DNA of 64,000 nucleotides, taken from contig OY759316.1 in NCBI GenBank assembly GCA_963662275.1, forward strand, positions 3,040,001-3,104,000, given 5' to 3'. Below the pieces are notes generated by a model. It was not told the DNA's origin. It ran no database searches and saw only the letters and a program-made list of their open reading frames with translations. Position numbers and translations under genes: made by a program. The stretch comes from Candidatus Cloacimonadales bacterium. Lineage in GTDB: Bacteria; Cloacimonadota; Cloacimonadia; Cloacimonadales; DAONDQ01. Shown here in pieces: positions 32,800 to 49,100 of the stretch (within the stretch, counting starts at the first letter, position 1; each line of letters starts with the position of its first letter).

Positions 32800-32946
32800 T
32801 ATCTATAAAATGAATATTAATGAATATATCTGAACAGATTACTTGATAAATCGATAATTACGAGAGATAGATTAAATTGTATCGAGATGAAACGGAACAA
32901 TTTACTTAATCCAAAGTACGATTCTCCTAATTGGTGAACTAATCAC

Positions 32947-33192
32947 TCAAATCACGTTATTAAAATCAGATGTATTAGATTGTGTTTGAGGAGAATAGGG
33001 ATACTTAGCATTCGGTTCTGATTCGGAACTATCTGCTTGATAAGTAGCCCGATAATTCACTGTTAAGCACTTGTTTAAACGTTCCGTCAGTTTACGACGT
33101 TTGTGATATCGCATATGATAATTACTACCAATACCTAAGAATGACTTAATCATATGCAATATTAAGTGATATGCTTCAAAAATAAAATTCAT
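32947..33192 (-). CDS. Possible small hypothetical protein
   Basis: AAGGGGAG RBS-like sequence before ATG; no recognisable motif. Confidence 0.3.
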   Translation of the reverse strand: MNFIFEAYHLILHMIKSFLGIGSNYHMRYHKRRKLTERLNKCLTVNYRATYQADSSESEPNAKYPYSPQTQSNTSDFNNVI

Positions 33193-33336
33193 CGTTAATC
33201 TCTCCCCTTTACGAAGAACATACTTATCACAATCAGAATATTACAAATTCCTCTTCTACATTTCTCATTATCTTAAACCATATCTTATATTTACTTGTCA
33301 AGAAAATAAAATTAGTTTTTCCCCTAATGATTTTAT

Positions 33337-35197
33337 GAGACTGTTCAAAATTAACCTCCATTTTACGCAGCCTTATTGGTAGTGACAGAGAAAAAGTGGT
33401 CTAAGTGCGACCAATCCACATTTTCTTGACATATGCGGGAGATATTTAAACTTGCTAAAAGTGATTCCTGACGCATGATTGGTTGACCTTTATCGACCAG
33501 TTCTTTGAACCAAAGCGAAAACACAAGGTTGCGGGTGGTTTCTTCAGATTTTAGTCCAAATCTACCGGATGTCACCTTCTTGATTTTGCGGTTCCAGCGT
33601 TCAGAGACATTGGAAGTCAAACCTTTGCTGAGGTGTCTCCAATCACTAATGATATTGCTTTTGATGTATTCGGCGGCGGTTGGGGGAGTAATAGCTGTCA
33701 GGCTTGCGATACCCTTTTTCCTTCCGCCCGCCGTTTCTCTTCGGAAAGCTTTCATAATCCTCTTCTTAAAGAACTTGTCCCTGTCTTCAGGGAGATGACA
33801 TTGACTGATTCTTTTGAAGAGATTTCGTATCTTATGGAACTTACAGAGTTGGTAATGGACTTTTGGAAACACTGTTTTTCTTGCAACTGCTAACGATTTA
33901 CTGCCATCACTGACAATCAGGGTTGGATCTTTCCTGTAGAGCTGTCTGAAGGTTCTGAAACATGCTTCGAATGATTCTTTCTTTGTGTCAGGATACAACT
34001 CACAAAACAGAGGGATGTGAGTCACAAAATCAACAATACTGATGACATAGTACGGAATACCTTTGATCTTCACATATTTCTCATCAATGCTGATCTTTCC
34101 GCTCCACTTACCGATTGAGTTCAGAATCAGGCTCTGCAGGTCAGCGATTTCATGCCAGAGATTTGAGACTGTAGCTTTACAGGTGTTGAGCAGCAAAGCT
34201 ATCGTCTCGAAGTTCATACCGCTTCCAACCAGGTAATGTACCAGCAGACACAGGTTCTTGCGTTCCAGACTATGGAACGGCTTTGCATCGGCGGTTCTAT
34301 GGGATGTATTGCCTTTAGCAGTCTTCATTTGTTCCAGGAGTCTGTCACAGATAACAGGTGTATTCTGCTGACCGGCAAGCAGTTTCAGCAGATGTACAGC
34401 ATCACCGCCTACTGTCTTTTTCAGAAGAAGCTTCTGAGCTTGCTTAACTACAGACAGAGAATTGACCTGAGAAGCATATTTGCAGAAAGTGGTATAGGAC
34501 ATTTTAAAATCATGATGGCTGATGAACTCCTGATACATGACATTTAAAGGTAAAAGCAGGTTATTGATAACAAAATTCTCGATCTGAGGAATACACTCCA
34601 GCAGGTCAACTTTCCGGCTTAAATATGCCAGGATATCATGACCATGCTGCTCAAACTCTTGCCAGAAATTATGTACATTCCTGCGGTCTGCGTAGTTAAA
34701 CAGATCAGCTATTTGCTGAAGTGTAAGGAGGTTGTCTCCGCCTATTCCTACTAATAAGCGTAGAAACGCTATTAAGAACTTGTGGTTTGATGTTGTCTCA
34801 GGCAAAGTGAATGAAAATGGTACGTTAATACTTACATGGTATTGGTTACTTTCATGACTAACACTTACCGCTTCTTGAATTGGAGTGTTTTTTTGTCATA
34901 ATATCCTCCCTTTTGTTACCAGGTAACAAATGCCATTGAAGCTATAGCAAAAAACTTGTAAAGAACTATTTTATATGATTTTAACTACACATTTAGTCAG
35001 AAACGGCTTCGAAACATTACTTATAATCGCGTGTTTTTCAATTTTAGTCAAAAAGCTTAACTTGTGATTTGGTGTCCTTAGCAGAGCTTATCTGTCAATT
35101 CTGGAAGGTATGTTAAATTATGACCGTTTCGACCACTTTTTTCAACTTGCTACTTTCTAACTTATTGAATATTATGAATAACTTCATGAACAGTCTC
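33337..35197 (-). mobile_element. Insertion sequence, IS256/Mutator-like, 1861 bp, copy 2 (diverged isoform)
   Basis: Same IR GAGACTGTTCA; its own 8-bp target duplication GATTTTAT (33329-33336, 35198-35205). Confidence 0.9.
33363..34805 (-). CDS. DDE transposase, close paralog of 23904-25346
   Basis: Same length (480 aa) and motifs, scattered substitutions. Confidence 0.85.
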   Translation of the reverse strand: MPETTSNHKFLIAFLRLLVGIGGDNLLTLQQIADLFNYADRRNVHNFWQEFEQHGHDILAYLSRKVDLLECIPQIENFVINNLLLPLNVMYQEFISHHDFKMSYTTFCKYASQVNSLSVVKQAQKLLLKKTVGGDAVHLLKLLAGQQNTPVICDRLLEQMKTAKGNTSHRTADAKPFHSLERKNLCLLVHYLVGSGMNFETIALLLNTCKATVSNLWHEIADLQSLILNSIGKWSGKISIDEKYVKIKGIPYYVISIVDFVTHIPLFCELYPDTKKESFEACFRTFRQLYRKDPTLIVSDGSKSLAVARKTVFPKVHYQLCKFHKIRNLFKRISQCHLPEDRDKFFKKRIMKAFRRETAGGRKKGIASLTAITPPTAAEYIKSNIISDWRHLSKGLTSNVSERWNRKIKKVTSGRFGLKSEETTRNLVFSLWFKELVDKGQPIMRQESLLASLNISRICQENVDWSHLDHFFSVTTNKAA

Positions 35198-35288
35198 GAT
35201 TTTATTCCAATTACAGTCAGTTTTTGATGCAAACTGCCAAGAATAATAATCTTGTATTGCTCTAATAAAAATCAAACAATTATTCGGT

Positions 35289-36611
35289 TTACTTCTCGAT
35301 TTCTCTTAATTTCCGATGCAGCGTTTTTCGATCAATGCCAAGAATATCCGCAGCTTGGGATTTGTTGCCATGGCACATGCTTAATACATGTTGAATATGA
35401 TCCTGCTCAACCTGGTTTAAGGTTTGTTGCCAGTGATTCGGAGAATGCAGCGAGTATCTTAGATGCTCGGGTAGATCTGATATTTCTATCATTGCTTTAT
35501 CATTCAGGACCATAGCTCTCTGAATAAAATTCTCTAACTCTCGGATATTCCCCGGATAATGATATTTCAGTAAAGCTTCCAACGCTCTATCTGTTATATG
35601 GGGAATGCTATGCCCTAACTCAGCAGCATGTTTTTGCACAAAATAACGAATGAGGAGAGGGATATCTTCCTTATGTTCAATCAATGGTGGAATATCTATG
35701 TTGATAACGTTCAATCGATAATACAAGTCTTCGCGGAACAATCCTTTTTCAACCAGTGACAGCAGATTTTTATTTGTAGCAGTGATAATCCTCACGTCGA
35801 TCTTCTCTGCTTTATAGCTTCCCACCATGGAAACCTCCCTATCCTGGACAACACGTAGTAGTTTTGCCTGCATAGGAAGAATCATTTCAGATACTTCATC
35901 CAGGAATATTGAACCACCCTGGGCAGCCTGGAAGAAGCCTTTTCTTGTGATACCCGCACCAGTGAAGGCACCTTTAAGATGACCAAAGAACTCACTCTCC
36001 AATAATTCCTGGGGAATAGCTGCACAATTCACAGGGATAAATGGTGAAGTTGGATGGGCAGATTGATAATGTATGGCTCTTGCAACAAGTTCCTTTCCCA
36101 CACCACTTTCTCCTGTAATCAGGACAGTAGCTTTTGATTGACTAGCCTTCCTGATGATCTCATAGATTTTTTGCATTTCTAGTGATTTTCCGATGATCCC
36201 AGCAAAAGATTCAGGTTTCTCCACTTGAACAAGTCGTCTCTGTTGTAATTTATGCAATACTCTCTGTACGACCTGGAGTAATTCTTCCTGGGTGAACGGT
36301 TTCGAGAGGTATTCATCTGCACCCATCTTGATAGCTTTTACTGCTCCAGTAATTGTGGCGTATCCTGTCATCATAATCATAGCAGTATATTCATGATTAT
36401 CTTTAATATAACGGACAAGATCCAATCCCGTCAGCCCTGGCATCTTGAAGTCAGTGATTACTAAGTCGATGGGAGTATTCTTCAGAATACTTAAAGCTGC
36501 TTCAACGCTACTGGCAATGAGGATATTGACCTTGATATCTTCAAGTTGACGAGTTAGCATCTCCAGAGTATCTGGAGAATCATCCACAATTAAAACTGTA
36601 TTTTTTTTCAT
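35289..36611 (-). CDS. Sigma54-dependent response regulator (NtrC/AtoC family)
   Basis: REC domain; GESGVGKE Walker A; GAFTGA; FLDE; REDLYYRLN; GNIREL; Fis-type HTH. Confidence 0.95.
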   Translation of the reverse strand: MKKNTVLIVDDSPDTLEMLTRQLEDIKVNILIASSVEAALSILKNTPIDLVITDFKMPGLTGLDLVRYIKDNHEYTAMIMMTGYATITGAVKAIKMGADEYLSKPFTQEELLQVVQRVLHKLQQRRLVQVEKPESFAGIIGKSLEMQKIYEIIRKASQSKATVLITGESGVGKELVARAIHYQSAHPTSPFIPVNCAAIPQELLESEFFGHLKGAFTGAGITRKGFFQAAQGGSIFLDEVSEMILPMQAKLLRVVQDREVSMVGSYKAEKIDVRIITATNKNLLSLVEKGLFREDLYYRLNVINIDIPPLIEHKEDIPLLIRYFVQKHAAELGHSIPHITDRALEALLKYHYPGNIRELENFIQRAMVLNDKAMIEISDLPEHLRYSLHSPNHWQQTLNQVEQDHIQHVLSMCHGNKSQAADILGIDRKTLHRKLREIEK

Positions 36612-38086
36612 ATAATACGCTCCGGAAAGCCGATTGTAAATGTAGTTCCAATATTTGGCTTGCTGTTCACTTCAATCCTGGCATGATGACTCTTCAAAAT
36701 TCCATGCACCACTGCTAAACCCAAACCTGTACCTTGTCCAGTGGGTTTAGTGGTAAAGAAGGGAAGAAATATCTTTTTCTGAATTTCCTTATTCATTCCA
36801 TGACCTGTATCTCGAATGCTAAAATATACCCAACCGGCTTCATACCAGGTTCTTAGATATAGTTCTCCACCACGTTCCATAGATTGAATGGAATTTACTG
36901 TAAGATTAACAACAACTTGTATCAGTTGACCCGAGTCTGCATCAATGAAAGGCAAGTTCGAATCGAATTCCTTGACTACCTTGATGTTTTCACGAGTACA
37001 TCGATATTCAAGAAAGTATAGACCTTCTTCAAGAATTGTATTAAGATTTACTTCTCTGATATGAACCGGCATTTGCCTGGAAAAGAAAAGCAATTTCTTC
37101 ACAATTTCCCGAGTATGGAGGCTTGATTTGATAATCTTTTCCAAATCTGCTTTTACTCGTTCAGGGTCATGTAATGCTTTTTTTGCCAGTTCAGCAAATC
37201 CCAGTATGTTCGTGAGAGGTTCATTGATCTCATGGGCAATACCTGCTGTGAGAGTACCAAGTGTTGCTAAACGGTCAGCATGACGAAGCTGTTCCACCAT
37301 ATTTCTCTCAGCATCCCTGGCTGCCTTACTTTCCAAATATTGAGCCAGTTTTTGAGCAATTAACTCCAGGAGTTTAGCTTCTTCTTCAAGAAAGAATATA
37401 GGTTCTAATGATATTTTATCTGCTGAATAAGAGACTTGTATCTCACCCCAAGATTCATGCTGTGTTTGTATTATAGTTCTCAATTGCATGATATCAGGTG
37501 TAAAGCCTGGCGTTTGAACCGTTTCCCCGCCAATTATAATTCGGCATCCAGCCACTGATGGATATTGAAAAGCAGGTGGAATCAGATGCACTATCTTATC
37601 AAAAAGAATATCCGAAGGAAGATCATTTTGCAGGACTTCATTCAATTGATACATACAAGTCAATTCTTTGATACGTTCCTGCAAGGCATTATTTGTCCTT
37701 CTCAAGAACATAATGCTTCCTAAGACAGTAGCAATATAAACGTAATCAAGTTCTTTCATGAAAGGCAAAATCAGAATCCCTAACATCTGAGTCCCAGCGT
37801 GTATTTTCAGGTAGCAGGAGGTTTTATGAAAGTATATTTCCTCTGCGTGCCTGATAAATATCGCAGCATCCCTTTCTTTTCCTGTCTTAGGATACTTAAT
37901 CCAATTCCGGTATTGCATACTGAATTGCGGTTTGGTTTGAAACACATATTCATGCTGGGAATCCGAACACAGGAATATCAGCGAAGATAATTTCATCTCC
38001 CTTTGTAACAAATCTGCCATCCTTATGAGGAATTCAACACGTGTAAGATGTAACTCAACTAAGTTCATTAACTCTTTTTCAAACAT
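36608..38086 (-). CDS. Cytoplasmic sensor histidine kinase (NtrB-like) with GAF-like domain
   Basis: AHEINEPL H-box; N, DTGHG, FLPFFTTK, GTGLGL boxes; AAGGA RBS before ATG at 38086. Confidence 0.9.
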   Translation of the reverse strand: MFEKELMNLVELHLTRVEFLIRMADLLQREMKLSSLIFLCSDSQHEYVFQTKPQFSMQYRNWIKYPKTGKERDAAIFIRHAEEIYFHKTSCYLKIHAGTQMLGILILPFMKELDYVYIATVLGSIMFLRRTNNALQERIKELTCMYQLNEVLQNDLPSDILFDKIVHLIPPAFQYPSVAGCRIIIGGETVQTPGFTPDIMQLRTIIQTQHESWGEIQVSYSADKISLEPIFFLEEEAKLLELIAQKLAQYLESKAARDAERNMVEQLRHADRLATLGTLTAGIAHEINEPLTNILGFAELAKKALHDPERVKADLEKIIKSSLHTREIVKKLLFFSRQMPVHIREVNLNTILEEGLYFLEYRCTRENIKVVKEFDSNLPFIDADSGQLIQVVVNLTVNSIQSMERGGELYLRTWYEAGWVYFSIRDTGHGMNKEIQKKIFLPFFTTKPTGQGTGLGLAVVHGILKSHHARIEVNSKPNIGTTFTIGFPERII

Positions 38087-38144
38087 AGTATCATCCTTTA
38101 AAAGATAATAATCAGTTTGCAGTTTGTGTGGCAAGGTATTTACG

Positions 38145-38269
38145 GGGCATTTTACCCCACTGCGAATAATAGTCCCATGAAAACTCTCGACGCACCACTA
38201 GGTTGAGATGTTCTAAATGCATATACTACCAGAGATTATGGATCATTGAATGTTTGGCGGAAGAAATGC
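38145..38269 (+). promoter_or_regulatory. Putative sigma54 -24/-12 promoter for gdh (38255-38269) with upstream palindromic activator site (~38144-38159)
   Basis: TGGCggaagaaaTGC has correct GG-N10-GC spacing; GGGGCATTTTACCCC palindrome ~100 bp upstream; adjacent sigma54 activator gene. Confidence 0.55.
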
Positions 38270-38523
38270 GTTCTATGATTGTGGATTTGGTCAATAGAAA
38301 CGGTTGGGGTTTGATTCTGTTAAACCCCAACCTGTTTCAAAAAGCATAAACAGGAGTGTTCATTTTGATGGAAGTTCGAAAAGACCGGAACGTAACAAAA
38401 AGCAGAGAAAGCATTGAATCTGTAAAAACAGCTATCAAATTATGGTTTTCCGATTACTTTATCGATAGAGTATAAACACAAGCATCAAACTCACAAACAC
38501 AAATACAAAAATAGAGGTGAATT

Positions 38524-39810
38524 ATGAAAGAACAAGGATTCAATCCCTTCCTGATGGCTCAGGAGCAATTCGACAAAGTCGCTGATATACTGAACCTGGA
38601 CACAGCAACACGTGAACTTCTTCGTACACCCATGCGGGAATATCATTTCAGTATTCCGGTAAAAATGGATGACGGAAATGTGCAGATCTTCAAAGGCTAC
38701 AGATTTCAACACAATGATTCTCGTGGTCCTGCCAAAGGTGGTATCCGTTTCCATCCTCAAGAGACTGCTGATACGGTCAGAGCGTTATCCATGTGGATGA
38801 CTTGGAAGACTGCTGTCGTTGATATTCCTCTCGGTGGAGCTAAAGGTGGAGTCATATGTGACCCACATAACCTCAGTATGCGCGAACAGGAGTTGATTTG
38901 CCGTGGTTACGTCAGACAGGTTGCCCAGAATATTGGACCGCTGCGTGATGTGCCGGCACCTGATGTTATGACGAATGGTCAGCATATGCTTTGGATGCTT
39001 GATGAATATGAAACTATTATGGGTGCAAAATACCCTGGTATGATTACGGGGAAACCTGTTGGCATGGGTGGTTCTTTGGGACGTACAGAAGCCACTGGTT
39101 ATGGTGTGGTATTTATCTTACGTGAAGCTCTTAAGGAAATGAATCTGAAACCTCAGAACACAACCGCGTCTGTTCAAGGATTCGGAAATGTCGCTCAATA
39201 TGCTATCCGTTTGTATAATCAATTAGGTGGAAAAGTGATTGCGGTTGCCTGTTGGGATCAAAAAGAACAGAAATCCTTCACATTACGTAATAAAGACGGG
39301 ATCAATATCGATCAATTAGTTGGTATCACTGACAGATTCGGTGGAATCGATCGTCAGCAGGCTCAAACATTGGGATATGAAGTTCTAACCGGAGACGCGT
39401 GGCTTTCACAGGAAGTTGATATACTGATACCGGCTGCAATGGAAAATCAAATCACCGATAAGAATGTTAAACAGATATCATCACGCGTCAAGATTATCGC
39501 TGAAGGTGCAAATGGTCCAACGACCCCTGAAGCAGATAAAGTTATCCAGGAAATGGGAATCTTCATGCTTCCGGATTTTCTGACGAATGCCGGTGGTGTA
39601 ACTTGCAGTTATTTTGAACAAGTACAATGTAATATGAACTACTATTGGGAAAAAGATGAAGTTCTTGGGAAGCTTGATGTCAAGATGACTTCAGCATTCC
39701 TGGCTGTCTCTCACTTAGCAAAGACCAGGAAGCTTTACATGCGCGATGCTGCCTATGTCATTGCGATCAATCGTGTAGCTGAAGCATGCAAACAGCATGG
39801 CTGGGTTTGA
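38524..39810 (+). CDS. gdhA: Glutamate dehydrogenase (Glu/Leu/Phe/Val family)
   Basis: GPAKGGIRFHP, GGAKGG, DVPAPD, GRTEATGYG, QGFGNV, EGANGP, NAGGV. Confidence 0.92.
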   Translation: MKEQGFNPFLMAQEQFDKVADILNLDTATRELLRTPMREYHFSIPVKMDDGNVQIFKGYRFQHNDSRGPAKGGIRFHPQETADTVRALSMWMTWKTAVVDIPLGGAKGGVICDPHNLSMREQELICRGYVRQVAQNIGPLRDVPAPDVMTNGQHMLWMLDEYETIMGAKYPGMITGKPVGMGGSLGRTEATGYGVVFILREALKEMNLKPQNTTASVQGFGNVAQYAIRLYNQLGGKVIAVACWDQKEQKSFTLRNKDGINIDQLVGITDRFGGIDRQQAQTLGYEVLTGDAWLSQEVDILIPAAMENQITDKNVKQISSRVKIIAEGANGPTTPEADKVIQEMGIFMLPDFLTNAGGVTCSYFEQVQCNMNYYWEKDEVLGKLDVKMTSAFLAVSHLAKTRKLYMRDAAYVIAINRVAEACKQHGWV

Positions 39811-39851
39811 TAGATTCCTTCTAATCAGATCATGATAGAGTAAAAATATAA

Positions 39852-39880
39852 AAGGGAGGACTGGATTCTTGTCCTCCCTT
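39852..39880. terminator. Stem-loop between gdh and the next gene
   Basis: AAGGGAGGAC...GTCCTCCCTT 10-bp stem; no long U tract on +. Confidence 0.5.
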
Positions 39881-39897
39881 AAATTCAGGATGATATT

Positions 39898-41607
39898 ATG
39901 ACTAATCCAACCCCCTATATCAGAAAAGTGAATGATGTATTCACTTATCTTGGTACCGGTGAATTCGGTGAAAAAGCGCATGGTTTGATTAATACGCTTA
40001 CTTATCTGAATGATGCTTTCCCCGGAAATGAATTCGAAGGAATTGAGATATTCATCCCGAAATCACTTGTTATCTTGAGTGATGTATTTACGCTATTCAT
40101 GGATGAAAACTCACTATGGGAATTAGCTCTTACTGATTTATCTGATGAACACATCGCCCAAATATTTCAAAAAGCAAGTCTCCCAGCTCTCTTAAGCGGT
40201 GACCTGTATGAATACGCAGTAGCAACAACATATCCATTGGCAGTAAGGTCATCAAGCATTTTAGAAGATTCTCTGAACGAACCATTCGCTGGTGTATATC
40301 ATACAAAGATGTTACCAAACTATTACTTAGACCCACAATTGCGCTTCCAGAAACTCGTCCAGGCTGTAAAACTAATTTGGAGCAGTGTCTATACACAGTC
40401 TTCTAAAAGATATTTTCAGGCAATTAAAAGAGATATCCTGACAGAAAGAATGGCAGTTCTCATCCAGGAAGTTGTTGGTAAACGCTATAAAGATAGGTAT
40501 TATCCAACCATTAGCGGTGTTGCCCGTTCTTACAATTATTACGCATATAAAGACAATCAACCGGAAGATGGCATCATAAACCTAGCATTAGGTTTGGGAA
40601 AGTCTATCGTTGATGGTGAAAATGTGTGGCAATATACCCCATCAAGTCCTGCCAGTCCACCTCCGTTTTCTCTTGCTGATATCCTGCAAAACACACAATC
40701 ATCTTTCTATGCAGTTCATATGGGAGAAAAAAGTGAATATGATCCGATTAATCCGGATGAATTTCTTACAAAACATTACCTTGATGAAGCAAAGAAGGAT
40801 GGCACGCTGGTTGTTTGTGGAAGACCTTATAATGAGAATTCCGATAACAATGAATCGGGTCCTTGGCTAGTTGATTTCTCACCTGTACTTAAATATGATA
40901 TCATGCCTCTGAACCGGTTGCTGCAAAAGCTTCTTCAAATCTGTGAAAATCTTTATGGATTGAAAGTGGAAATCGAGTTCGCTGTCACAGCGGATGAAGA
41001 TTCAAAGCCACATTTTGGTTTTCTCCAGGTACGTCCTATGATCATGCAGGGTGGTAGTGTGGAAGTGAAAGAAGAAAGTGGAAAACAAGTTCTGTTATAT
41101 AGTGAAAATGTGCTTGGAAATGGCATTGTCAGTGATATCACAGATATCATTATGATTAAAAGAGAAGTATTTAACCCAAAAGATTCCTATGCCATAGCGC
41201 AGGAAATGGATGTGTTTAACAAGGATTTCTTAGATAACGATAAAAGATATCTTCTGCTTACTTATGGGCGTTTAGGCAGTTCAGATCCATGGCTTGGTAT
41301 TCCTGTCGACTGGAGCAGTATAGGTAAGGTTTCAGTCATAGTTGAATCGGCATTACCGGGATTCAATCCCGAGCTAAGTCAAGGTTCTCATTTCTTTCAC
41401 AATCTCCTGGCTTTCCAGGTGAAGTACTTTTCCATCTGTGAATCTGATATGAATGATCTTGACTATTCGTGGCTGGATTCCCAACCCGTGATGAAGAATG
41501 GCAAGTATCTGAAACATATCGTTTTAAACAAGCCTTTACTGATAAAAGTTGACGGAAGGGAACGGAAAGGTATTATTTACAAAAACGGAGATGAGAAAAT
41601 ATTATGA
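39898..41607 (+). CDS. PEP synthase/PPDK N-terminal (ATP-grasp) domain protein without the pyruvate-binding barrel
   Basis: AVRSSSILED...FAGVY, MAVLIQEVVG, GLGK, VEIEFA, LQVRP, ELSQGSHFF. Confidence 0.8.
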   Translation: MTNPTPYIRKVNDVFTYLGTGEFGEKAHGLINTLTYLNDAFPGNEFEGIEIFIPKSLVILSDVFTLFMDENSLWELALTDLSDEHIAQIFQKASLPALLSGDLYEYAVATTYPLAVRSSSILEDSLNEPFAGVYHTKMLPNYYLDPQLRFQKLVQAVKLIWSSVYTQSSKRYFQAIKRDILTERMAVLIQEVVGKRYKDRYYPTISGVARSYNYYAYKDNQPEDGIINLALGLGKSIVDGENVWQYTPSSPASPPPFSLADILQNTQSSFYAVHMGEKSEYDPINPDEFLTKHYLDEAKKDGTLVVCGRPYNENSDNNESGPWLVDFSPVLKYDIMPLNRLLQKLLQICENLYGLKVEIEFAVTADEDSKPHFGFLQVRPMIMQGGSVEVKEESGKQVLLYSENVLGNGIVSDITDIIMIKREVFNPKDSYAIAQEMDVFNKDFLDNDKRYLLLTYGRLGSSDPWLGIPVDWSSIGKVSVIVESALPGFNPELSQGSHFFHNLLAFQVKYFSICESDMNDLDYSWLDSQPVMKNGKYLKHIVLNKPLLIKVDGRERKGIIYKNGDEKIL

Positions 41608-44600
41608 CAGAATCACGGCAGAAAGAACTCTTGGACAGCTTATCGGAAAGAGCGAAGGAACTTAATTGCCTGTATCAAATCGAAGAATTGCTCAAGGATT
41701 ATGAGCGTCCACTGTCTGATATCTTTCACGAACTTGTTCAAATCATTCCCCAAGGCTGGCAATTCCCCAATGATACTTCAGTTCGCATCCAGAACAGAGG
41801 GGATGTTTTTGAAAGCTTAAATTTCCTGGCATCTGAGACAAAATTACAAGCTAACATGGATGTGCAGAACGAAAATGTAGGATATTTGGAGATCTACTAT
41901 CATGGCAACGACAAGCTGGCAAATCCGTTTTTACCGGAAGAACAAAAATTACTGAGTACCATTGCCCAATGGGTGAGTCATTACCTATATTATCGGGATT
42001 TGAATACTCAATCAGCCCTGGCGATTCAGAATAAAAATAAAATAGCTTCCCGAAATGAATGGCAGGCAGTTGTTGAAATGATACGGAAGACAGATTCGGA
42101 TTTTTACCTGAGGCTTTCCCGGAAAATGATGAATTATCTATGTTGGTTAGGAATACCGGAAGCAAGGCACATTTTGCAATCATTTGCTGAAGATAATGCT
42201 CTTTTGGGAGATAATACCGAAGAAAATAAACCAGGAAGAAGAAACGTGGGATTGATGAAAATGGCAGGGGAGAGAATTTTTGAACTAGCTTCCCACTCCA
42301 TTAGTGATGAAGAGATCTTAAATCAAATCAAACGCTGGTTTCAACAAGATAAGATCATGTTTTTCCTGGAGAATCTGGAAAATCTTTCTACTTCCATGAG
42401 TGATTTACACAATGCCCTCACGCGTTTCTCTCATCTTGATAAAATGGACATTTCAGAGCATACCTATTTAAATCTGAAAGTACTCCTGATCTATCGCTTC
42501 TTTACTGAACAACCTGAATTTATCAACATTGCAAAACATTTTGTCGATCCTGAAGATTTTTATGATCTTATCCAGCATATTATCTATCCTTCAAGAGGGC
42601 AAGGAAAGCTGGGTGGAAAAGCAGCAGGAATATTCCTGGCAACCAGCATACTGAAATCAAGTAAGCTGAATTACAAAACACCTAAAACCTGGTATATCAC
42701 TTCGAATGCGTTGCTTTCTTTCCTTAACTACAACAATCTTCGTGAGATTATCGAACAAAAGTATAAAAATGGGGAACAGATTCGTGAAGAATATCCGAAT
42801 ATCATACAAATTTTCAAAAATTCATACTTTTCTCCTGAAATTACGAAAGGACTGCAGCAAGCGCTGAATGATTTTGGTGAAAAACCTCTGATCGTACGCA
42901 GTTCAAGTCTGTTAGAAGACAGGATCGGGGCGACTTTTTCCGGCAAATACAAAAGTCTGTTCCTTGCGAACCAGGGAACGTACCAGGAACGTTTGGCAGC
43001 CTTGATGGATGCAATTACGGAAGTGTATGCTTCTACTTTTGGTCCTGATCCAATCGAATACCGTAAAGAGCGTAATCTTCTTGATTTTCATGAGGAAATG
43101 GCTATTCTCATCCAGGAAGTTGTAGGCGTAAAAGCTGGAAAATATTTCTTCCCCGCCTTTGCGGGAGTGGCATTTTCTTATAATGAATTCCGCTGGTCAC
43201 CTCGTTTGGAAAGGGATAATGGTCTTTTACGCTTGGTACCAGGTTTGGGTACACGGGCTGTTGATCGCATTGGTGATGAATACCCGTTGCTGCTGGCTCC
43301 CGGTCAACCATCCCTAAGAGTAAACACCAATCCTGAAGAAATTTCACTTTATTCACCTCATAGAATAGATGTCATCGACTTGGAAGAAAATACATTTGTT
43401 ACCCATGACCTGGATCTTTTACTGAAAGAGATCAAGGATGAATTTCCACAGGTGGAACAGATGTTCAGCGTGTACAATGATGGTACGATCGTTGAGAAAA
43501 CGAAATTTGGCATCGATTTTGAAAAAGATACACTACTTTTTACGATGAATAGTTTTCTAAAAAACAGTCCTTTTTTGAGCAATATGCGTCAACTTCTCAA
43601 TGTATTAAGGGAGAAGATCGGGATTGGGGTCGATATCGAATTTGCCCACGATGGAAAAGATCTGTATATTCTTCAATGCAGAGGTCAGGGGCTCAGTTCA
43701 GAAAATGCTCCATCCTTAATACCGCAGGATATCAATGAGCAAAATATCATTTTCAATGCAAATACCTATATTTCCAATGGTGCTGTTCCTGAGATCTTGC
43801 ATATTGTCTATGTGGATCCTGCCGGTTATAAAAAACTAACCAACCTTGAAGATTTGAAACGGGTCGGCAGAGCAATAGGACAATTGAATGGAATTCTGCC
43901 CAAACGGAAGTTTATACTGATGGGTCCCGGACGTTGGGGTTCCAAAGGTGATATCAAGCTCGGCGTAAAAGTGACTTATTCGGATATCAATAATACTGCT
44001 ATGCTGATCGAAATTGCCCGTTGTGAAGGAGGCTATTTACCCGATCTATCATTCGGAACGCATTTCTTCCAGGATCTTGTGGAAGCTTCTATTCGTTATT
44101 TACCACTATATCCCGATAATGAAGGGATCATTTTTAATGACCAGTTCCTGGACATTTCTTCCAATATTCTATCTAATTTATTACCTGAATATGCGGATTT
44201 AGAAGAAGTGATCAAAGTAATCGATGTGCAGGGAAATTCGCAGGGAAAGATCTTACGTGTTCTCATGAATGCGGATTTAAACCTGGCAATTGCATATCTT
44301 GATCTTCCGACTTCTTCCAGCACGAATCTAAATATTCCAATTAAAAATACCCCATATTCTACGGAAGCTCCTTGGGTCTGGAGACTGCGTATGGCTGAAG
44401 CTATCTCAAATATGATGGATGGAAAACAATTTGGAGTGAAAGCTATCTATCTGATTGGCAGTACAAAGAATGCAAACGCTGGACCAGCTAGTGATATTGA
44501 TCTTCTTCTCCATTTTACCGGAAATGCTGTGAAAAGAAGAGAACTTCTTAAATGGCTGGAAGGATGGGGTTTGGCACTTGCAGAGATGAATTTTCTGAAA

Positions 44601-44729
44601 ACAGGTTATCGTACAGATAGTTTGCTTGATGTTCATTTAGTTACGGATCATGATATTTCTGAGAAAACAAGCTATGCAGTGAAGATCGGAGCAATCACCG
44701 ATGCAGCCAGGTTACTGAAAGCCTTTTAA
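41604..44729 (+). CDS. GAF-like + PEP synthase/PPDK ATP-grasp + C-terminal nucleotidyltransferase fusion
   Basis: GKLGGKA, VRSSSLLED, DIEFA, LQCR, DLSFGTHFF; C-terminal YLIGST...SDIDL...LDVHLV (Pol-beta GS/DxD/D). Confidence 0.8.
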   Translation: MTESRQKELLDSLSERAKELNCLYQIEELLKDYERPLSDIFHELVQIIPQGWQFPNDTSVRIQNRGDVFESLNFLASETKLQANMDVQNENVGYLEIYYHGNDKLANPFLPEEQKLLSTIAQWVSHYLYYRDLNTQSALAIQNKNKIASRNEWQAVVEMIRKTDSDFYLRLSRKMMNYLCWLGIPEARHILQSFAEDNALLGDNTEENKPGRRNVGLMKMAGERIFELASHSISDEEILNQIKRWFQQDKIMFFLENLENLSTSMSDLHNALTRFSHLDKMDISEHTYLNLKVLLIYRFFTEQPEFINIAKHFVDPEDFYDLIQHIIYPSRGQGKLGGKAAGIFLATSILKSSKLNYKTPKTWYITSNALLSFLNYNNLREIIEQKYKNGEQIREEYPNIIQIFKNSYFSPEITKGLQQALNDFGEKPLIVRSSSLLEDRIGATFSGKYKSLFLANQGTYQERLAALMDAITEVYASTFGPDPIEYRKERNLLDFHEEMAILIQEVVGVKAGKYFFPAFAGVAFSYNEFRWSPRLERDNGLLRLVPGLGTRAVDRIGDEYPLLLAPGQPSLRVNTNPEEISLYSPHRIDVIDLEENTFVTHDLDLLLKEIKDEFPQVEQMFSVYNDGTIVEKTKFGIDFEKDTLLFTMNSFLKNSPFLSNMRQLLNVLREKIGIGVDIEFAHDGKDLYILQCRGQGLSSENAPSLIPQDINEQNIIFNANTYISNGAVPEILHIVYVDPAGYKKLTNLEDLKRVGRAIGQLNGILPKRKFILMGPGRWGSKGDIKLGVKVTYSDINNTAMLIEIARCEGGYLPDLSFGTHFFQDLVEASIRYLPLYPDNEGIIFNDQFLDISSNILSNLLPEYADLEEVIKVIDVQGNSQGKILRVLMNADLNLAIAYLDLPTSSSTNLNIPIKNTPYSTEAPWVWRLRMAEAISNMMDGKQFGVKAIYLIGSTKNANAGPASDIDLLLHFTGNAVKRRELLKWLEGWGLALAEMNFLKTGYRTDSLLDVHLVTDHDISEKTSYAVKIGAITDAARLLKAF

Positions 44730-45583
44730 TGAAAGCGATATACGTTACTGATTTGCATGGTCGGACAAAGTTATTCAATTTACTGATGGAATACATCTTA
44801 AAGGAAAAACCGGAAGTCTTATTCATAGGTGGTGATATCTTTCCGGGTGGTAGAGGATTGATGGCAGCCTTAAACTATGAATGTGAAGATTTTGTGAATG
44901 AGTTCCTGGTTGAATGGTGTAATCATCTTAAAACTGAATTAACGAATCAGTATCCAAAGATCTTCCTTATCATGGGTAATGATGATTCTGCCTATGATGA
45001 ATTTGCTCTACAATCACATCCCCATTTATGGACATACTGTCACAACCAGGTAGTAATGTGCAATGAATTCACTATTATCGGTTATAATTGCATCCCTCCA
45101 TCTCCATTTCTTAATAAGGATTGGGAACGTTATGATATTTCCAGGTTCGTCGATCCCGGTTGTATTCCTCCTGATGAAGGACGACATACTTACCCTCCTG
45201 ACGAATACGAATATCGGAAAACTATACAAGATGAATTGAATGAGGTAACTGAAGATTTGAATTTTTCACAAACAATCTGTCTATTTCACTGTCCGCCCTA
45301 CAACACGAATTTAGATCGTGCCGCCTTGGATGGTAAAAGTTTTGATTATGCCCCTCTTGATGTTCATATTGGCAGCATCGCCATCCGTCGGTTTATTGAA
45401 GACAACCATCCTATGCTGGGATTATTCGGGCATGTCCATGAAAGCAGTAGAATAACCGGCGTACGTTCAGAAATGTTAGGTCAGACTTTGTGTATTAACT
45501 GCGCAACTGACGATGGCAGCTTATGTATTGCTCAATTTGATTTGTTTGATTTATATACAAGACCCGTATTATATAATCTATAA
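44729..45583 (+). CDS. Icc-like calcineurin-fold metallophosphoesterase
   Basis: TDLHG, GGDI, MGNDD, FHCPP, GHVHE; TAATG overlap with the upstream stop. Confidence 0.85.
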   Translation: MKAIYVTDLHGRTKLFNLLMEYILKEKPEVLFIGGDIFPGGRGLMAALNYECEDFVNEFLVEWCNHLKTELTNQYPKIFLIMGNDDSAYDEFALQSHPHLWTYCHNQVVMCNEFTIIGYNCIPPSPFLNKDWERYDISRFVDPGCIPPDEGRHTYPPDEYEYRKTIQDELNEVTEDLNFSQTICLFHCPPYNTNLDRAALDGKSFDYAPLDVHIGSIAIRRFIEDNHPMLGLFGHVHESSRITGVRSEMLGQTLCINCATDDGSLCIAQFDLFDLYTRPVLYNL

Positions 45584-46127
45584 TTACAAATTATTGCTGC
45601 ATCTCCCATAAATAACTACAAGATAAATACTGAGAATAAGTTTATTACTGAGAAAAAGCATCGGTATGATAAGACAAAAAATACAACATCGAGTTACGAA
45701 GAAATCTGAACAGAAAACTGATTTTTTAAGTAATAAGTTCTATTTGGGCATCTTATGTATAAATATATAATGATTCCTGATCGGGGTTTTGCGAGAAGAC
45801 TGTTCTGTTTAAGAGTTATGATTTGATTCAGTGAATTTAATCATTCTCTGCAAGAGCGTTTCGCTTCGGTGATGTCTATTCATGTAATTACCACGAATAC
45901 CCATGAAGAGCTTAACTATATTAACAACTTGCTGCATCGAATGCGAATGAATTAGAACCCCCTAAAATCACACTAATGATTCATGGATATTCATTTTTTT
46001 TACCAACAAATCAACTTAGAAATCATATATAAGAATTTAATCAGATTCTGGAATTTGCCAAATTATTATATTGCATTTTTTTCTCTGAAAAGACTATTAA
46101 GTATTTGAAATGAATATATTTGAACAA

Positions 46128-46156
46128 AAGAACCACCCAGAAAATGGGTGGTTCTT
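46128..46156 (-). terminator. Intrinsic terminator of the 1469-aa gene
   Basis: AAGAACCACCCA/TGGGTGGTTCTT stem with T-rich tail on -. Confidence 0.75.
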
Positions 46157-46169
46157 ACTTGTATTTTAT

Positions 46170-49100
46170 CTACTTCAAGAGTAGAATTTTTCGTACTTCT
46201 ACACACTCCCCTGCCTTCATTTTTACAAAATAGACTCCTGAAGGACAAGCTTTTCCAATGAGATTGATACCACTCCAAGTTGTCTGATAAATACCCGCTT
46301 TGTCATTGTTTTTATGAAAGGAAGCCATCAACTGACCTTTCACATTATAGATGGAAATCTCGACTTGGTTAGGGGTTTTTAATGAATAACGAATGGTTGT
46401 ATCTCCAATGAATGGATTCGGAAAGATGCTTTCAAGTCTTGTTAGTTCGGGTATGATTGGTGGTACATCCGGATTGTCATTCTGTTCAACAAAGATGGAA
46501 ACAGGTCCATGAAAACCACTGGTTCCATCCGTGTTTACATATTGAAGCCAATAGTATAATAGAACAGGAGCTTCGATTTCTTCATCCACGAATTGGTATG
46601 TCTGTTGGGTGGATGTATTCAAGGCTGCTACCATGATGTTCATATCCTCTGCCGTCTGCAGGGTATTCTCAGTGCTGCGTAAGATACGATAGCCAACCAA
46701 GTTCGTTTCTGATTGGGTAATCCAATTCAATTGGACATAATTCTGCTGAGTTGTAATAGCCGTGAATGAAGTCAATTCAACAGGAAGGGTCTCGTTTTCT
46801 GCACCAACAGTCCATTCAGAGAACTCGTTTGTATTCACTTGGATCATCCTGGGATTTAATAATGACACATCTACAGGAGTACCTACTGGCTGCCAGCTAG
46901 TGCCATTATACCGATACACTATCGCCTTGTTTTCTGGAGAAAATACATGCCCATTATCAGCAGTGGAGGGCCACACAAGTGTTAGTTGTGAAGTACCTGT
47001 AAATGAACCGTTAATTGTCCATTTCCGATGAATACCACTTTTCCCAAAAACGTCAACCGCCTGATCAAGATGAGTAGCCTGGAAACCAGTAATTTCCAGT
47101 CCGTTTGCCACATGAACACCAACTGCATCATTATTGAATCCTTTTATTCCAATTTCCTGGCTAACCGTTCCAAAAATCTCTGTATTCTGGTTCGTATTCA
47201 AAATTGCTGTTGGTTTCAATACCAAAGATGAAGAAGCCGTATTTAACTGTGAGTTGATTAGAAGCGTCACTGAGCTTTCCACATAGGCATTGGAATTAAG
47301 AGTAACAAGTATACTCGGTGAGATGATGATACTGTTGAGAATCCCAGAACTGGAAGGAATTTCATTGCCTGTGACCACAGTGCTCTGATAGAATAAATTC
47401 ACTGTTCCTTGCCATACAGGTTCCACATCCAATGCCCCAAGACCTCGATTGATTGTTGTGTTATCAATGAAAACGAGATACTGAGAGTTTGTCAGCTCTC
47501 CCTTGAGCAGGTAAAAAGCAGAATAGATATACACATAATCTGTTAATGTTGCTCCGTCAGCACGATCCAGTGTGAAATATCCCAACGTAACTCCGGAAAG
47601 TTCTAAGCCAGTACCCGCTCCTGAGATCGTCAATGATGAAGTCTGAGACCCTGTAAAACTTCCCGTTCCCATAGTGAGATCACCGGTTATCGACAGGCTG
47701 TTATTATTCAGATTCAATGATCCTGCTGTTAGATAAAGATCTTCAACAGTTAGACTTCCACCCATGAGCATTCCGCTTGGTCTGTCTAATACAAGTTCCT
47801 GAAGTGTAACTGACGGAACAGTAGCAGCCAATGCAGTGCCATTAATTGTCAGCTTGGCATCTGCTCCACCTGTCAGGCTTCCCATAAATTGGGTAATGAT
47901 TCCACCCACTGTTAATCTGTGAGAACTCAATAATAAAGCTCCCCTGTTTAAATTCAGATTCGTCGTGATAACATCCCCCGTTAAGGTACAGCCATTCATG
48001 CGACTAATCCCTAAAGTCCCCACTGTAAGGCCTCTCAAGTTAAAATTCAATCCATTGCCACCGATCAATAGGCTGGAAGAAGAATCCGTAATTAATGTAC
48101 CTAAAAATTCGCTCATGATCATGTTGATCGTTAGTTGATTAGCACCTACAGTAAAATGACCGCTGATCAAGTTTAAATTATTAACAGATACATTTCCAAT
48201 CATCGTACACCCACTTGCACGTGAAAGAGATAAATTTCCTAATGTGATTGCTTCCAGGCTGAATGTGGATACAGCACCACCTATCGTTAATGATGAACTG
48301 GTAGTTCCAGTCATGAGTGAACTACCTGTTTTCGTACCATTCATTAAAAGAGTACTCGAACCAATAGAAAGTCCACCGGAAGTGAGTGCAAGTGTACCAT
48401 TAATACTTACTGTCCCACTGATGGCAATGCCATTAGCACGGAGGACATTCAGATTGTTCAGCACAACAGATGGTAATGTTGTTTGAGGTGTGCTGATTGT
48501 TCCCCCAATTATGATGTTGGAAGAAGTACCTCCTGTTAAACTCCCACTTGTTGTATTAATGTAATCGGTAATCGTAAGTGTATTAGAGCTAATCGTTAAA
48601 CTACCAGATAGCAGATCAAGGGAAGTCAGTGATAATACGCCTCCCATTGTCGCCCCTAAAGGTCTGTTTAACGTCAGATTGTGAATACTGAGAGAAGCAG
48701 GAATTGCAAAATTTGCTGCTGTTCCACCAACTGTAATATCGGAACTGCTGCCGGCATTCAAGCTTCCGGAGCCGAAAGAAAGAGCTCCATTCAATGTCAG
48801 ACGATGACTTCCTACCGTAAATGCTCCTGATGTCAGTATCAGGTCAACGGTCGTGATATCGGCACCCATTGTAGCGCCATTACTCCTGTTTAATGTCAAT
48901 TGATTAAGAGTAATCGTTTCTATTGAGAAATTCAATCCGCTTCCACTGATGATCATATTTGAACTGGAACTGCCAACGATCAGGCCTGCTCCGCTTTTTG
49001 TACCTGACATGGTAAAAGTATGACCGTTAATACCCATATTCCCTGTCAAACTTAAAGTCCCGGTTACTGTAACGGCACCGCTTAGCGTAATGCCGCTTGT

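Follow-up and report, generated by a model that had tools for sequence, protein, structure and literature searches.

A gene set kept across many phyla that most likely switches glutamate dehydrogenase on and off

Why should two genes that resemble phosphoenolpyruvate (PEP) synthases, one of them ending in a nucleotidyltransferase, stand directly behind a glutamate dehydrogenase gene? The question is raised by positions 35289..45583 of a 64,000-nucleotide stretch (contig OY759316.1, positions 3,040,001 to 3,104,000; "the window" below means this whole stretch) from a Candidatus Cloacimonadales bacterium whose genome is a single 4.38-Mb contig. Six genes lie there, two on the minus strand and four on the plus strand, with open reading frame (ORF) coordinates that match those of an earlier note on this DNA. 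The plus-strand genes encode glutamate dehydrogenase (GDH; gene gdh), two proteins with the PPDK_N domain, here called PPDK_N-1 and PPDK_N-2, the second of which ends in a nucleotidyltransferase (NTase) domain, and a metallophosphoesterase. The minus-strand genes encode a histidine kinase and an NtrC-like response regulator (Table 1). GDH is a junction of carbon and nitrogen metabolism, and we conclude that this gene set, kept across many phyla, most likely switches GDH on and off. We are confident that the module is functionally linked to GDH and think it fairly likely that its role is regulatory rather than metabolic. In the specific form that we favor, whose chances we put at about even, a sensor-gated regulatory dikinase heteromer and a nucleotidylation/denucleotidylation pair would act on GDH or on the complex, with the kinase, the NtrC-like regulator and sigma-54 setting transcription in parallel.

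Is this gene order a peculiarity of one genome? Following a neighborhood analysis proposed in the earlier note, we used PPDK_N-2 as bait, took one genome per species, and searched the resulting 63 loci with the six window proteins (tblastn). The closest relatives are labelled Cloacimonadota, the best of them 78% identical. Among the 47 loci with at least 3300 nt upstream, a PPDK_N-1 orthologue stands directly upstream in 38, a gdh of at least 50% identity is found in 38, and both are found in 37; some ELFV dehydrogenase lies in the fetched stretch in 42. The gdh genes that head related loci are 55-91% identical to that of the window. Loci without the full order are mostly shorter forms that lack the sensor and NTase domains and are labelled Fermentibacteria and Melioribacter. 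By their record titles, the loci carry at least eight phylum labels (Cloacimonadota; Calditrichota; Zixibacteria; Acidobacteriota, namely Thermoanaerobaculia and Holophagae; Ignavibacteria; Myxococcota; a "Deltaproteobacteria" metagenome-assembled genome [MAG]; and an "Eubacteriales" MAG), and with taxa so broad chance adjacency is untenable. An independent metagenome scan, baited with the small sensor-NTase proteins described below, yielded 23 loci with a PPDK_N-2-like protein, in which the order gdh, PPDK_N-1, PPDK_N-2 is seen wherever an upstream flank exists.

Within this order the two PPDK_N genes are especially close. The stop codon of PPDK_N-1 and the start codon of PPDK_N-2 share the sequence ATGA (41604-41607), and 16 of the 119 PPDK_N-2 homologues listed are fusions of more than 1500 amino acids in which a His motif discussed below occurs twice. 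In one of these (P0010) the first 578 residues match PPDK_N-1 (44%) and the rest match PPDK_N-2 (52%). The fusions and the overlapping codons suggest that PPDK_N-1 and PPDK_N-2 work as one unit.

How closely is this unit tied to GDH? The window's gdh (best NCBIfam match GdhA_Arch, 473.6 bits, under its cut-off) belongs to the small hexameric class. Of 151 genomes sampled from the phylum, 34 have a gdh at least 64% identical to it, and all 34 also have a full-length PPDK_N-2. There is only one genome with PPDK_N-2 in which a gdh of this class was not found (G049, 96% complete, approximately 190 contigs); four others have a more distant gdh of the class (44-53%) and no PPDK_N-2. In this sample, then, the window's GDH class and the module go together.

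Another branch of the family is attached to a different GDH class. An exhaustive profile-free search with PPDK_N-1 returned 2710 representatives at E<=1e-3, many of them approximately 1000 amino acids long, with the PPDK_N-1-like part at the C-terminal end and weak Response_reg and DUF5752 matches at the N-terminal end. We rejected the idea that these are GDH fusions, because the N-termini are not GDH. When 60 of them were aligned to the window's receiver domain with MAFFT, an alignment that could be shifted, the acceptor Asp position was occupied by M, F or T in 50. From their sequences these N-termini look like pseudo-receivers, and the thought that a kinase phosphorylates them was dropped because of the replaced Asp. 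In the 151-genome sample, 119 genomes match PPDK_N-2 at E<=1e-20; about 35 have a full-length orthologue, and most of the rest have forms of approximately 990 amino acids, often as tandem pairs. We picked seven tandem-pair and two single-gene loci by hand. A classical-class GDH gene follows five of the seven pairs; the other two pairs and both single genes have no GDH nearby. These GDHs are 31-33% identical to the window's gdh product and 67-71% identical to a second, classical-class GDH that the source genome encodes approximately 35 kb downstream, outside the window (G000:C1:3115349-3116089); the two GDHs of the source genome are 33% identical to each other. In three of the five pairs with GDH (L072, L073 and L075), the next genes encode a kinase with the sensor domain described below and an NtrC-like regulator, which are 42-45% and 51-54% identical, respectively, to their counterparts in the window. 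That two branches of one family stand on two GDH classes points to a function in connection with GDH and not to a hitch-hiking gene. The source genome itself has no tandem pair of this kind in a genome self-search, though its classical-class GDH is present.

Three observations on relatives may be recorded here in their own right. In the Acidobacteriota loci L023-L050 (e.g., L029:3223-6434), an extra PPDK_N-1-like gene (34-37% identity) and then a second ELFV dehydrogenase gene (approximately 31%) lie upstream, giving three PPDK_N proteins and two dehydrogenases. Some relatives have frames of approximately 1370 amino acids with a PEP-utilizers domain (G010:C9:48676-48921, G016:C1:145494-145733, G030:C16:270609-270851 and others), and some have frames of approximately 600 amino acids with weak PF00391 matches (G001:C13:2593, G019:C1:3470553). 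Finally, three metagenomic GDHs (P0289, P0296 and P0316) are fused to HD-GYP and GGDEF, to HD, PAS and receiver, and to CBS and SpoIIE phosphatase domains; these singletons may be artefacts of assembly or gene calling.

What kind of enzymes are the two PPDK_N proteins? The earlier note had called them paralogous, and both of their shared parts bear this out: the ATP-grasp domains are 29% identical over 238 amino acids (BLASTP, E 2e-19), and the C-terminal domains align with a probability of 99.8% in hhalign. PPDK_N is the only Pfam match of PPDK_N-1 (residues 48-389, E 6.6e-32); in PPDK_N-2 it covers residues 335-707 (E 2.6e-52), and NTP_transf_2 follows at 943-986 with 22.2 bits (cut-off 21). 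The ATP-grasp residues VRSSS, Q and E are invariant or nearly so in the alignments of PPDK_N-1-like and PPDK_N-2-like sequences. The note had also remarked that the pyruvate-binding barrel and the canonical phosphocarrier motif are lacking, and this is the case. PPDK_N-1 ends after its C-terminal domain (C-domain) at residue 569 and the C-domain of PPDK_N-2 is followed by the NTase, leaving neither protein with a PEP/pyruvate TIM barrel; no Pfam match to PEP-utilizers or PEP-utilizers_C at E<=0.01 is found in either. Instead of the canonical T-S-H, the C-domain carries the motif G-(S/T/A)-H-F-F, in agreement with the common S.G(S/T)HFF motif first noticed (LSQGSHFFHNL in PPDK_N-1, LSFGTHFFQDL in PPDK_N-2). 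Its histidine is H498 in PPDK_N-1, near-invariant in 37 PPDK_N-1-like sequences, and H820 in PPDK_N-2, invariant in 34 PPDK_N-2-like sequences. A strict G[ST]H[FYW][FYWL] pattern is present in 129 of 150 family representatives; 16 of the other 21 keep the His in a G-x-H variant (mostly SQG-A-HFF), three have only an unrelated G-x-H, and two have none.

The AlphaFold2 model of PPDK_N-1 (pLDDT 88.7, pTM 0.86) gives some indication of what the C-domain might be. Foldseek matches the model to rifampin phosphotransferase (RPH; E approximately 5e-14), HpeI, PEP synthase and PPDK. In a fold search independent of Foldseek, the matches include RPH (5hv1, Z 24.9), HpeI (9goj, Z 18.5) and maize PPDK (1vbg, Z 12.3), the last aligning residues 6-566 of the model with residues 3-514 of the chain, which comprise the ATP-grasp and central domains. 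Only two of the structural matches listed for PPDK_N-1 cover the full C-domain: the isolated phosphoryl carrier domain of PPDK (2fm4, Z 6.7, rmsd 3.7 over 116 residues, model residues 393-566) and the C-terminal domain of Bacillus stearothermophilus pyruvate kinase (2e28, Z 6.3, model residues 396-569), which we take to be of the PEP-utilizer type. In the model H498 opens a helix (497-505) after a strand and a loop, and the catalytic His of swivel domains likewise stands at the start of a helix after a strand and a loop. With moderate support from the model, the C-domain is probably a swivel or phosphocarrier-type His domain.

The NTase domain at the end of PPDK_N-2 is better defined. All 34 PPDK_N-2-like members match PF01909, and the motifs G952-S953, D964-I965-D966 and D1009 are invariant in these 34 sequences, confirming the intact Pol-beta NTase that had been surmised. 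The closest fold is that of an MNT antitoxin (8xeh_E, Z 8.3, 100 of 104 residues aligned; Foldseek E 2.8e-4), and further matches include 2rff (Z 8.0), 1wot (Z 7.6), 1no5 (Z 7.3), ANT(4') (Z 7.2) and aminoglycoside adenylyltransferases. The domain has the features of the MNT type, that is hG[GS], [DE]x[DE], a third carboxylate and a Pol-beta-like fold. Enzymes of the MNT and aminoglycoside adenylyltransferase kinds put AMP on a hydroxyl of a protein or a small molecule. With no cyclase, CD-NTase or cyclic-nucleotide synthase among the fold matches listed for this domain, the synthesis of a nucleotide signal, which the earlier note had offered as an option, becomes less likely. A role in anti-phage defense was discarded: PADLOC gave only weak matches to the NTase domain and nothing meaningful.

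The gene of the metallophosphoesterase does overlap that of PPDK_N-2 as described, the stop and start codons sharing TAATG at 44727-44731. Its seven metal ligands (D8, H10, D36, N84, H187, H235 and H237), which spell out the calcineurin-like motifs DxH, GD, GNx[DE], H and GHxH, show at least 95% conservation among 69 homologues. Motif III reads GNDD, presumably the phosphodiesterase-like and not the protein-phosphatase-like variant. A PDB sequence search with this protein gave no match. The linkage of NTase and phosphoesterase, on which the earlier reading had been staked beforehand, is conserved. Forty genome loci have a full NTase end and a downstream flank of at least 2400 nt; among these the phosphoesterase gene is adjacent in 24 (8 on the same strand, 16 on the opposite one) and farther away in 4, or 28 in all.

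The pair also exists outside the operon. The NTase domain is found in 41 of the 151 phylum genomes and is not fused to PPDK_N in seven of them. In four such loci that we picked, the gene encodes either an NTase of 127-128 amino acids or a sensor-NTase of 314-323 amino acids, and the phosphoesterase gene comes directly after it in all four. A search for short proteins with the sensor domain found 45, mostly sensor-NTases of 270-330 amino acids. Metagenomes contributed 51 small sensor-NTase loci; in the 41 with at least 300 nt downstream, the phosphoesterase gene is adjacent in 32 (29 on the same strand, 3 on the opposite one) and there is none in 9. These adjacency counts make the NTase and the phosphoesterase a robust two-gene module, and the combination of sensor-NTase and phosphoesterase stands as a module in its own right. 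A PPDK_N-1-like gene is present in only one of the 51 small loci. (Co-occurrence of unfused NTase and PPDK_N in seven of seven genomes was set aside as uninformative against a background of 119 of 151.) The tie of the NTase/phosphoesterase pair to GDH is real, not obligatory.

Which signal might the module respond to? Residues 11-128 of PPDK_N-2 and residues 149-267 of the neighboring kinase (window 37334-37690) are one and the same kind of domain (29% identity, BLASTP E 2e-13), and a genome self-search with PPDK_N-2 also picked up this kinase. The domain has the signature ERxKELxC(L/M)YQ ... GWQ(F/Y)P ... FL.EE.KLL, in which E, L, C and Y are invariant both in the PPDK_N-2 family and in the small sensor-NTase proteins. 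No Pfam model covers it; in the ESM Atlas its only matches are to clusters without names, GAF being a weak lead (0.88-0.90). Thus the kinase presumed to control transcription and an enzyme encoded by the operon have the same input domain.

The kinase and its regulator had been described as a divergently transcribed, NtrB/NtrC-like pair, and their Pfam domains agree with this. The regulator has the receiver residue D54, an AAA+ domain with GAFTGA and Walker A, and a Fis-type HTH. Its best NCBIfam match is ntrC, with 426.5 bits against an equivalog cut-off of 558.6, and that of the kinase is NR(II), with 101.8 against 240; judged by these scores, the pair falls below the NtrC/NtrB equivalog level and consists of a HisKA kinase and a response regulator of the general sigma-54-dependent kind. 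The sigma-54 control proposed earlier stands for the family and less so for the window. The source genome has rpoN. In nine related loci (L005, L009, L012, L017, L018, L021, L037, L040 and L045), canonical elements (TGGCAC/TGGTAC/TGGCAT-N5-xTGC) precede gdh by 54-117 nt, and the regulator gene is present in eight of the nine; in L006, L016 and L027 the regulator occurs without a match to the pattern. The window has only the degenerate candidate TGGCGGAAGAAATGC, which is weak on its own because of three mismatches to the consensus and whose bases line up one to one with TGGTGCACGAATTGC in L004, the closest relative. The pattern TGGCAC-N5-TTGC with up to two mismatches occurs 47 times in the window against 39.45 expected, which is not above chance, and no occurrence is usefully placed. 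On these sequence patterns, sigma-54 control appears to have good support in the family; in the window it is plausible but weakly backed. Two features of the gdh leader lie close by: a conserved hairpin at 38303-38335 (GGTTGGGGTTT...AAACCCCAACC), just 3' of the putative -24/-12 element, and a piece of approximately 150 nt (38345-38495) that is missing from L004.

It is tempting to assemble these parts into a switch. PPDK_N-1 and PPDK_N-2 would be truncated dikinases, each with an ATP-grasp and a mobile His domain and without the barrel, most likely joined as a heteromer. They would most likely autophosphorylate with ATP on the His of the HFF motif, as VadK does (see below), and PPDK_N-2 would be gated by a ligand of its N-terminal sensing domain. 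The NTase and the co-translated phosphodiesterase, as writer and eraser, would add a nucleotide monophosphate to a hydroxyl group of a protein and take it off again; GDH would be the likeliest target, and a component of the module the alternative. In parallel, the divergent kinase, through the same sensor, may act on the NtrC-like activator and sigma-54 and so let gdh operon transcription follow the same signal. Since the sensor is shared by the kinase and PPDK_N-2, one metabolite would control both the amount and the activity of GDH. The sensors, the pseudo-receivers and the two-component system with the same sensor point to regulation, and the conserved pairing of NTase and phosphoesterase fits a writer and an eraser. 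The earlier proposal of a writer/eraser cycle on GDH is thus upheld as regards the conserved pair and the link to GDH. A covalent mark on GDH itself is the part that we hold somewhat doubtful, and a tie to energy state or amino-acid fermentation, also suggested earlier, is speculation. Tentatively, and with the odds against it, the module may even represent a new class of switch, in which paired dikinase-type histidine kinases and an NTase/phosphodiesterase mark GDH, on two unrelated GDH classes in many phyla. In such a class the ATP-grasp would replace the GHKL ATPase, and the swivel His domain would replace the DHp helix.

Several findings weigh against this proposal. Some concern the C-domain. 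The C-terminal pieces of both PPDK_N proteins have no match to PEP-utilizers (PF00391) even at a Pfam E-value of 10. Compared by hhalign with an alignment of 23 PPDK/PtsI swivel domains (from 30 loci, 7 being left out because the His-motif pattern was not matched), and with the genome's own PPDK and PtsI, the domain reaches a probability below 1%. PDB profile searches match only the ATP-grasp or the NTase and nothing in the C-domain, and the Z scores of 6-7 obtained with 2fm4 and 2e28 fall in a range about which the fold-search tool warns. The model of PPDK_N-2 residues 715-1041 has a pLDDT of 82.6 overall and less than 50 around the His loop; swivel domains are absent among the 50 matches listed for it, where NTase matches fill the list, and the few that cover residues 1-189 of the model are MccF-like and DRTGG proteins with Z of approximately 5. 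Other findings concern the neighborhood. The phosphoesterase was not found within 10 kb in 12 of the 40 genome loci, and the kinase/NtrC pair is present in only 11 of the 38 loci with at least 6500 nt upstream. Related genomes are non-independent samples, and the genome loci were found with PPDK_N-2 as bait. Among 69 longer GDH forms none has PF01326 or PF01909, so that no fusion of GDH to PPDK_N or NTase is seen, which is weak evidence. A GDH gene lies near the small sensor-NTase in 5 of the 51 metagenomic loci (3 of the 25 that span at least 7 kb) and is always of the classical class, as it also is in the partial loci L125, L127, L129 and L130. Since the NTase/phosphoesterase pair is mostly found away from GDH, it may act on a different target; GDH as the substrate is what we infer from context.

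The closest solved relatives of the ATP-grasp domains, RPH and HpeI, are small-molecule kinases, which is both a further point against the switch and the starting point of a different explanation. Could the genes form a small-molecule pathway? A metabolite around the glutamate/2-oxoglutarate node, or else a cofactor, would then be phosphorylated by the PPDK_N pair, the NTase would adenylylate and the phosphoesterase trim that or a related metabolite, and GDH would be a pathway neighbor. RPH, HpeHI, PEP synthase and glucan-water dikinase all act on small molecules, aminoglycoside adenylyltransferases are among the NTase matches, and an operon that includes an enzyme gene is typical of pathways. 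However, the ATP-grasp and the C-domain fill all 569 residues of PPDK_N-1, leaving it no substrate-binding domain and no room for one like the rifampin-binding domain or for a PEP barrel. The family carries sensor and pseudo-receiver domains, and its attachment to two GDH classes approximately 33% identical fits the enzyme as the partner; moreover, we know of no ATP-dependent phosphorylation step in glutamate catabolism. We consider such a pathway unlikely.

An explanation of similarly low standing, which we would call improbable, keeps the regulation and drops the mark on GDH. The dikinase pair would bind GDH or another enzyme according to its own phospho-His state, and the NTase and phosphoesterase would mark the dikinase itself. 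There is a precedent in PDRP, which modifies PPDK next to the catalytic His, and here S, T or A precedes the His. The residue is not conserved as a hydroxyl, however, Ala being common at this position. The fusion of an MNT-like NTase to the dikinase would suit such self-marking, MNT enzymes being known to modify a bound partner protein, as would the occurrence of the NTase/phosphoesterase pair apart from GDH; against it, sensor-NTase/phosphoesterase pairs occur with no PPDK_N nearby, as the single PPDK_N-1-like gene in the 51 small loci illustrates. The binding-based model of VadK, as outlined in excerpts of the report on it (PMC13400623), also speaks for this explanation.

That the two are ordinary PEP synthase or PPDK genes that merely lie beside gdh, a reading that the source annotations of homologues and the PPDK_N domain might suggest and that the earlier note had named as fatal to its own, is contradicted by the domain content (no barrel, no PF00391 match, extra sensor and NTase domains), by NCBIfam PEP synthase scores approximately one tenth of the equivalog cut-offs (59.5 against 598, and 55.4 against 739.75) and by a canonical PPDK-sized gene (926-aa frame) elsewhere in the genome, which also has a PtsI-sized gene, and we regard it as very nearly excluded.

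The switch on GDH remains the reading that we prefer, and Table 1 lists the features of the locus on which it is built.

Table 1. Features of the locus, with window positions, strand and supporting evidence
Feature	Position	Strand	Evidence or composition
NtrC-like sigma-54-dependent response regulator	35289-36611	-	REC, Sigma54_activat, AAA_lid_14, HTH_8 (Pfam)
Histidine kinase, cytoplasmic-looking	36608-38134	-	HisKA and HATPase_c (Pfam)
Candidate degenerate sigma-54 -24/-12 element TGGCGGAAGAAATGC (GG-N10-GC)	38254-38268	+	269 nt upstream of gdh
gdh, small hexameric GDH class, 428 aa	38524-39810	+	ELFV_dehydrog and ELFV_dehydrog_N (Pfam)
10-bp GC-rich stem-loop in the gdh/PPDK_N-1 spacer	39852..39880	+	RNA fold -23.4 kcal/mol, z only -1.89
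PPDK_N-1 (P0001), 569 aa	39898-41607	+	PPDK_N (Pfam), AlphaFold2 model
PPDK_N-1, domain architecture			ATP-grasp ~13-390; C-domain 393-569 with GRxGS and S-Q-G-S-H498-F-F
PPDK_N-2/NTase (P0002), 1041 aa	41604-44729	+	PPDK_N and NTP_transf_2 (Pfam)
PPDK_N-2, domain architecture			sensor 11-128; helical linker ~140-330; ATP-grasp 335-707; C-domain ~715-905 (G-T-H820-F-F); MNT-type NTase ~920-1041
Metallophosphoesterase (P0003), 284 aa	44729-45583	+	Metallophos, E 2.1e-10 (Pfam)

The stem-loop between gdh and PPDK_N-1 drew no call in the terminator scan; it is possibly a partial terminator or an element that stabilizes the mRNA. Rfam, applied to the gdh leader and the gdh/PPDK_N spacer, gave one sub-threshold chance match and no family. 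On the left the NtrC-like gene adjoins an ORF of 480 amino acids with MULE and Mutator-family transposase domains (33363-34805, minus strand), and the module may border on mobile or rearranged DNA. Farther out is an ORF of 567 amino acids (31096-32799, plus strand) with no Pfam family at E<=0.01. On the right a non-coding spacer of 590 nt (45584-46169) contains a strong terminator-like hairpin (46128-46156), and beyond it a protein of 1469 amino acids with a type IX secretion system (T9SS) C-terminal sorting domain (Por_Secre_tail, FlgD_ig; 46170-50579, minus strand) bounds the module.

How much of this is new? Our full-text literature search found no paper on the module and none on DUF5752; the papers on PPDK_N that it found do not treat the module, and it found none that joins a minimal nucleotidyltransferase with a metallophosphoesterase or links proteins named for a pyruvate-binding domain to glutamate dehydrogenase. 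The components are of familiar types, and for VadK the notion that a truncated PPDK can be regulatory has already been published. New are the sensor domain that the kinase and PPDK_N-2 share, the second PPDK_N branch that stands beside another GDH class and the same kinase/NtrC pair, and the evidence on sigma-54, the counts of stand-alone sensor-NTase/phosphoesterase pairs and the co-occurrence within the phylum. To our knowledge, no covalent on/off system exists for the small bacterial GDHs, unlike for glutamine synthetase with GlnE. If true, our proposal would supply a missing layer of nitrogen control in the Cloacimonadota of anaerobic digesters, in sediment Acidobacteriota, and in Calditrichota and Ignavibacteria. 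It would extend the VadK idea, that truncated PPDKs are regulatory kinases, to a family of 2710 representatives. It would also set right numerous annotations as "PEP synthase / PPDK," by which metabolic reconstructions are misled; homologues currently bear generic or misleading names such as "pyruvate, water dikinase" and "pyruvate, phosphate dikinase."

Known systems resemble the module in part only. PEP synthase and PPDK have the PPDK_N ATP-grasp in common with it, and maize PPDK overlays the ATP-grasp and central domains, while the TIM barrel and the T-S-H motif are missing here and the scores fall far under the equivalog cut-offs. RPH, reportedly a small-molecule kinase, and HpeHI provide the closest ATP-grasp structures and have the same order of an ATP-grasp followed by a swivel His domain. 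The rifampin-binding domain of RPH comprises approximately 430 residues, and the module has neither this nor another substrate-binding domain. HpeHI is described, in excerpts of the report, as a small-molecule dikinase split over two proteins (PMC12167813). Here, in contrast, an ATP-grasp and a His-type domain are present in both proteins, and the module adds a sensor, an NTase and a phosphoesterase.

For the NTase, the fold and motifs are those of MNT antitoxins (MntA of HEPN-MNT) and aminoglycoside adenylyltransferases, and the titles of the matched PDB entries state that MNT enzymes AMPylate a partner protein. The setting differs from HEPN-MNT: a metallophosphoesterase is the conserved neighbor and adjoins the NTase in the window, the NTase forms one protein with a dikinase or a sensor, and none of the nine ORFs scanned from 31096 to 50579 has a HEPN Pfam family. 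GlnE is the adenylyltransferase of glutamine synthetase, and GlnD is the uridylyltransferase/uridylyl-removing enzyme of PII. With these the module would share only the logic, a reversible nucleotidylation that tunes an enzyme of nitrogen assimilation to a metabolite; the would-be eraser here is a metallophosphoesterase and not an NTase-like or HD domain, and no GlnE or GlnD model is among the NCBIfam matches at E<=0.01. GDH as a target of AMPylation has a counterpart in mammals, where according to excerpts of the source the enzyme is AMPylated and inactivated by SelO (PMC12375108), a protein unrelated to the module's NTase.

The nearest precedent for the dikinases is VadK (Rv1127c) of Mycobacterium tuberculosis. 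Excerpts of the report describe a barrel-less PPDK that autophosphorylates on His422, binds to methylcitrate-cycle enzymes and tunes flux (PMC13400623). VadK is described as one protein, with a good overlay on solved PPDK (PMC13400623), whereas here the His domain lies beyond the reach of Pfam and hhalign and the proteins come as a paralogous pair or a fusion, one of them with a sensor and an NTase and with a phosphoesterase after it. The partner, too, would be GDH in place of the methylcitrate-cycle enzymes named there (PMC13400623). What the two have in common is a match of architecture only, namely an ATP-grasp and a phosphocarrier-type domain without the PEP/pyruvate barrel, set in the context of an enzyme of central metabolism.

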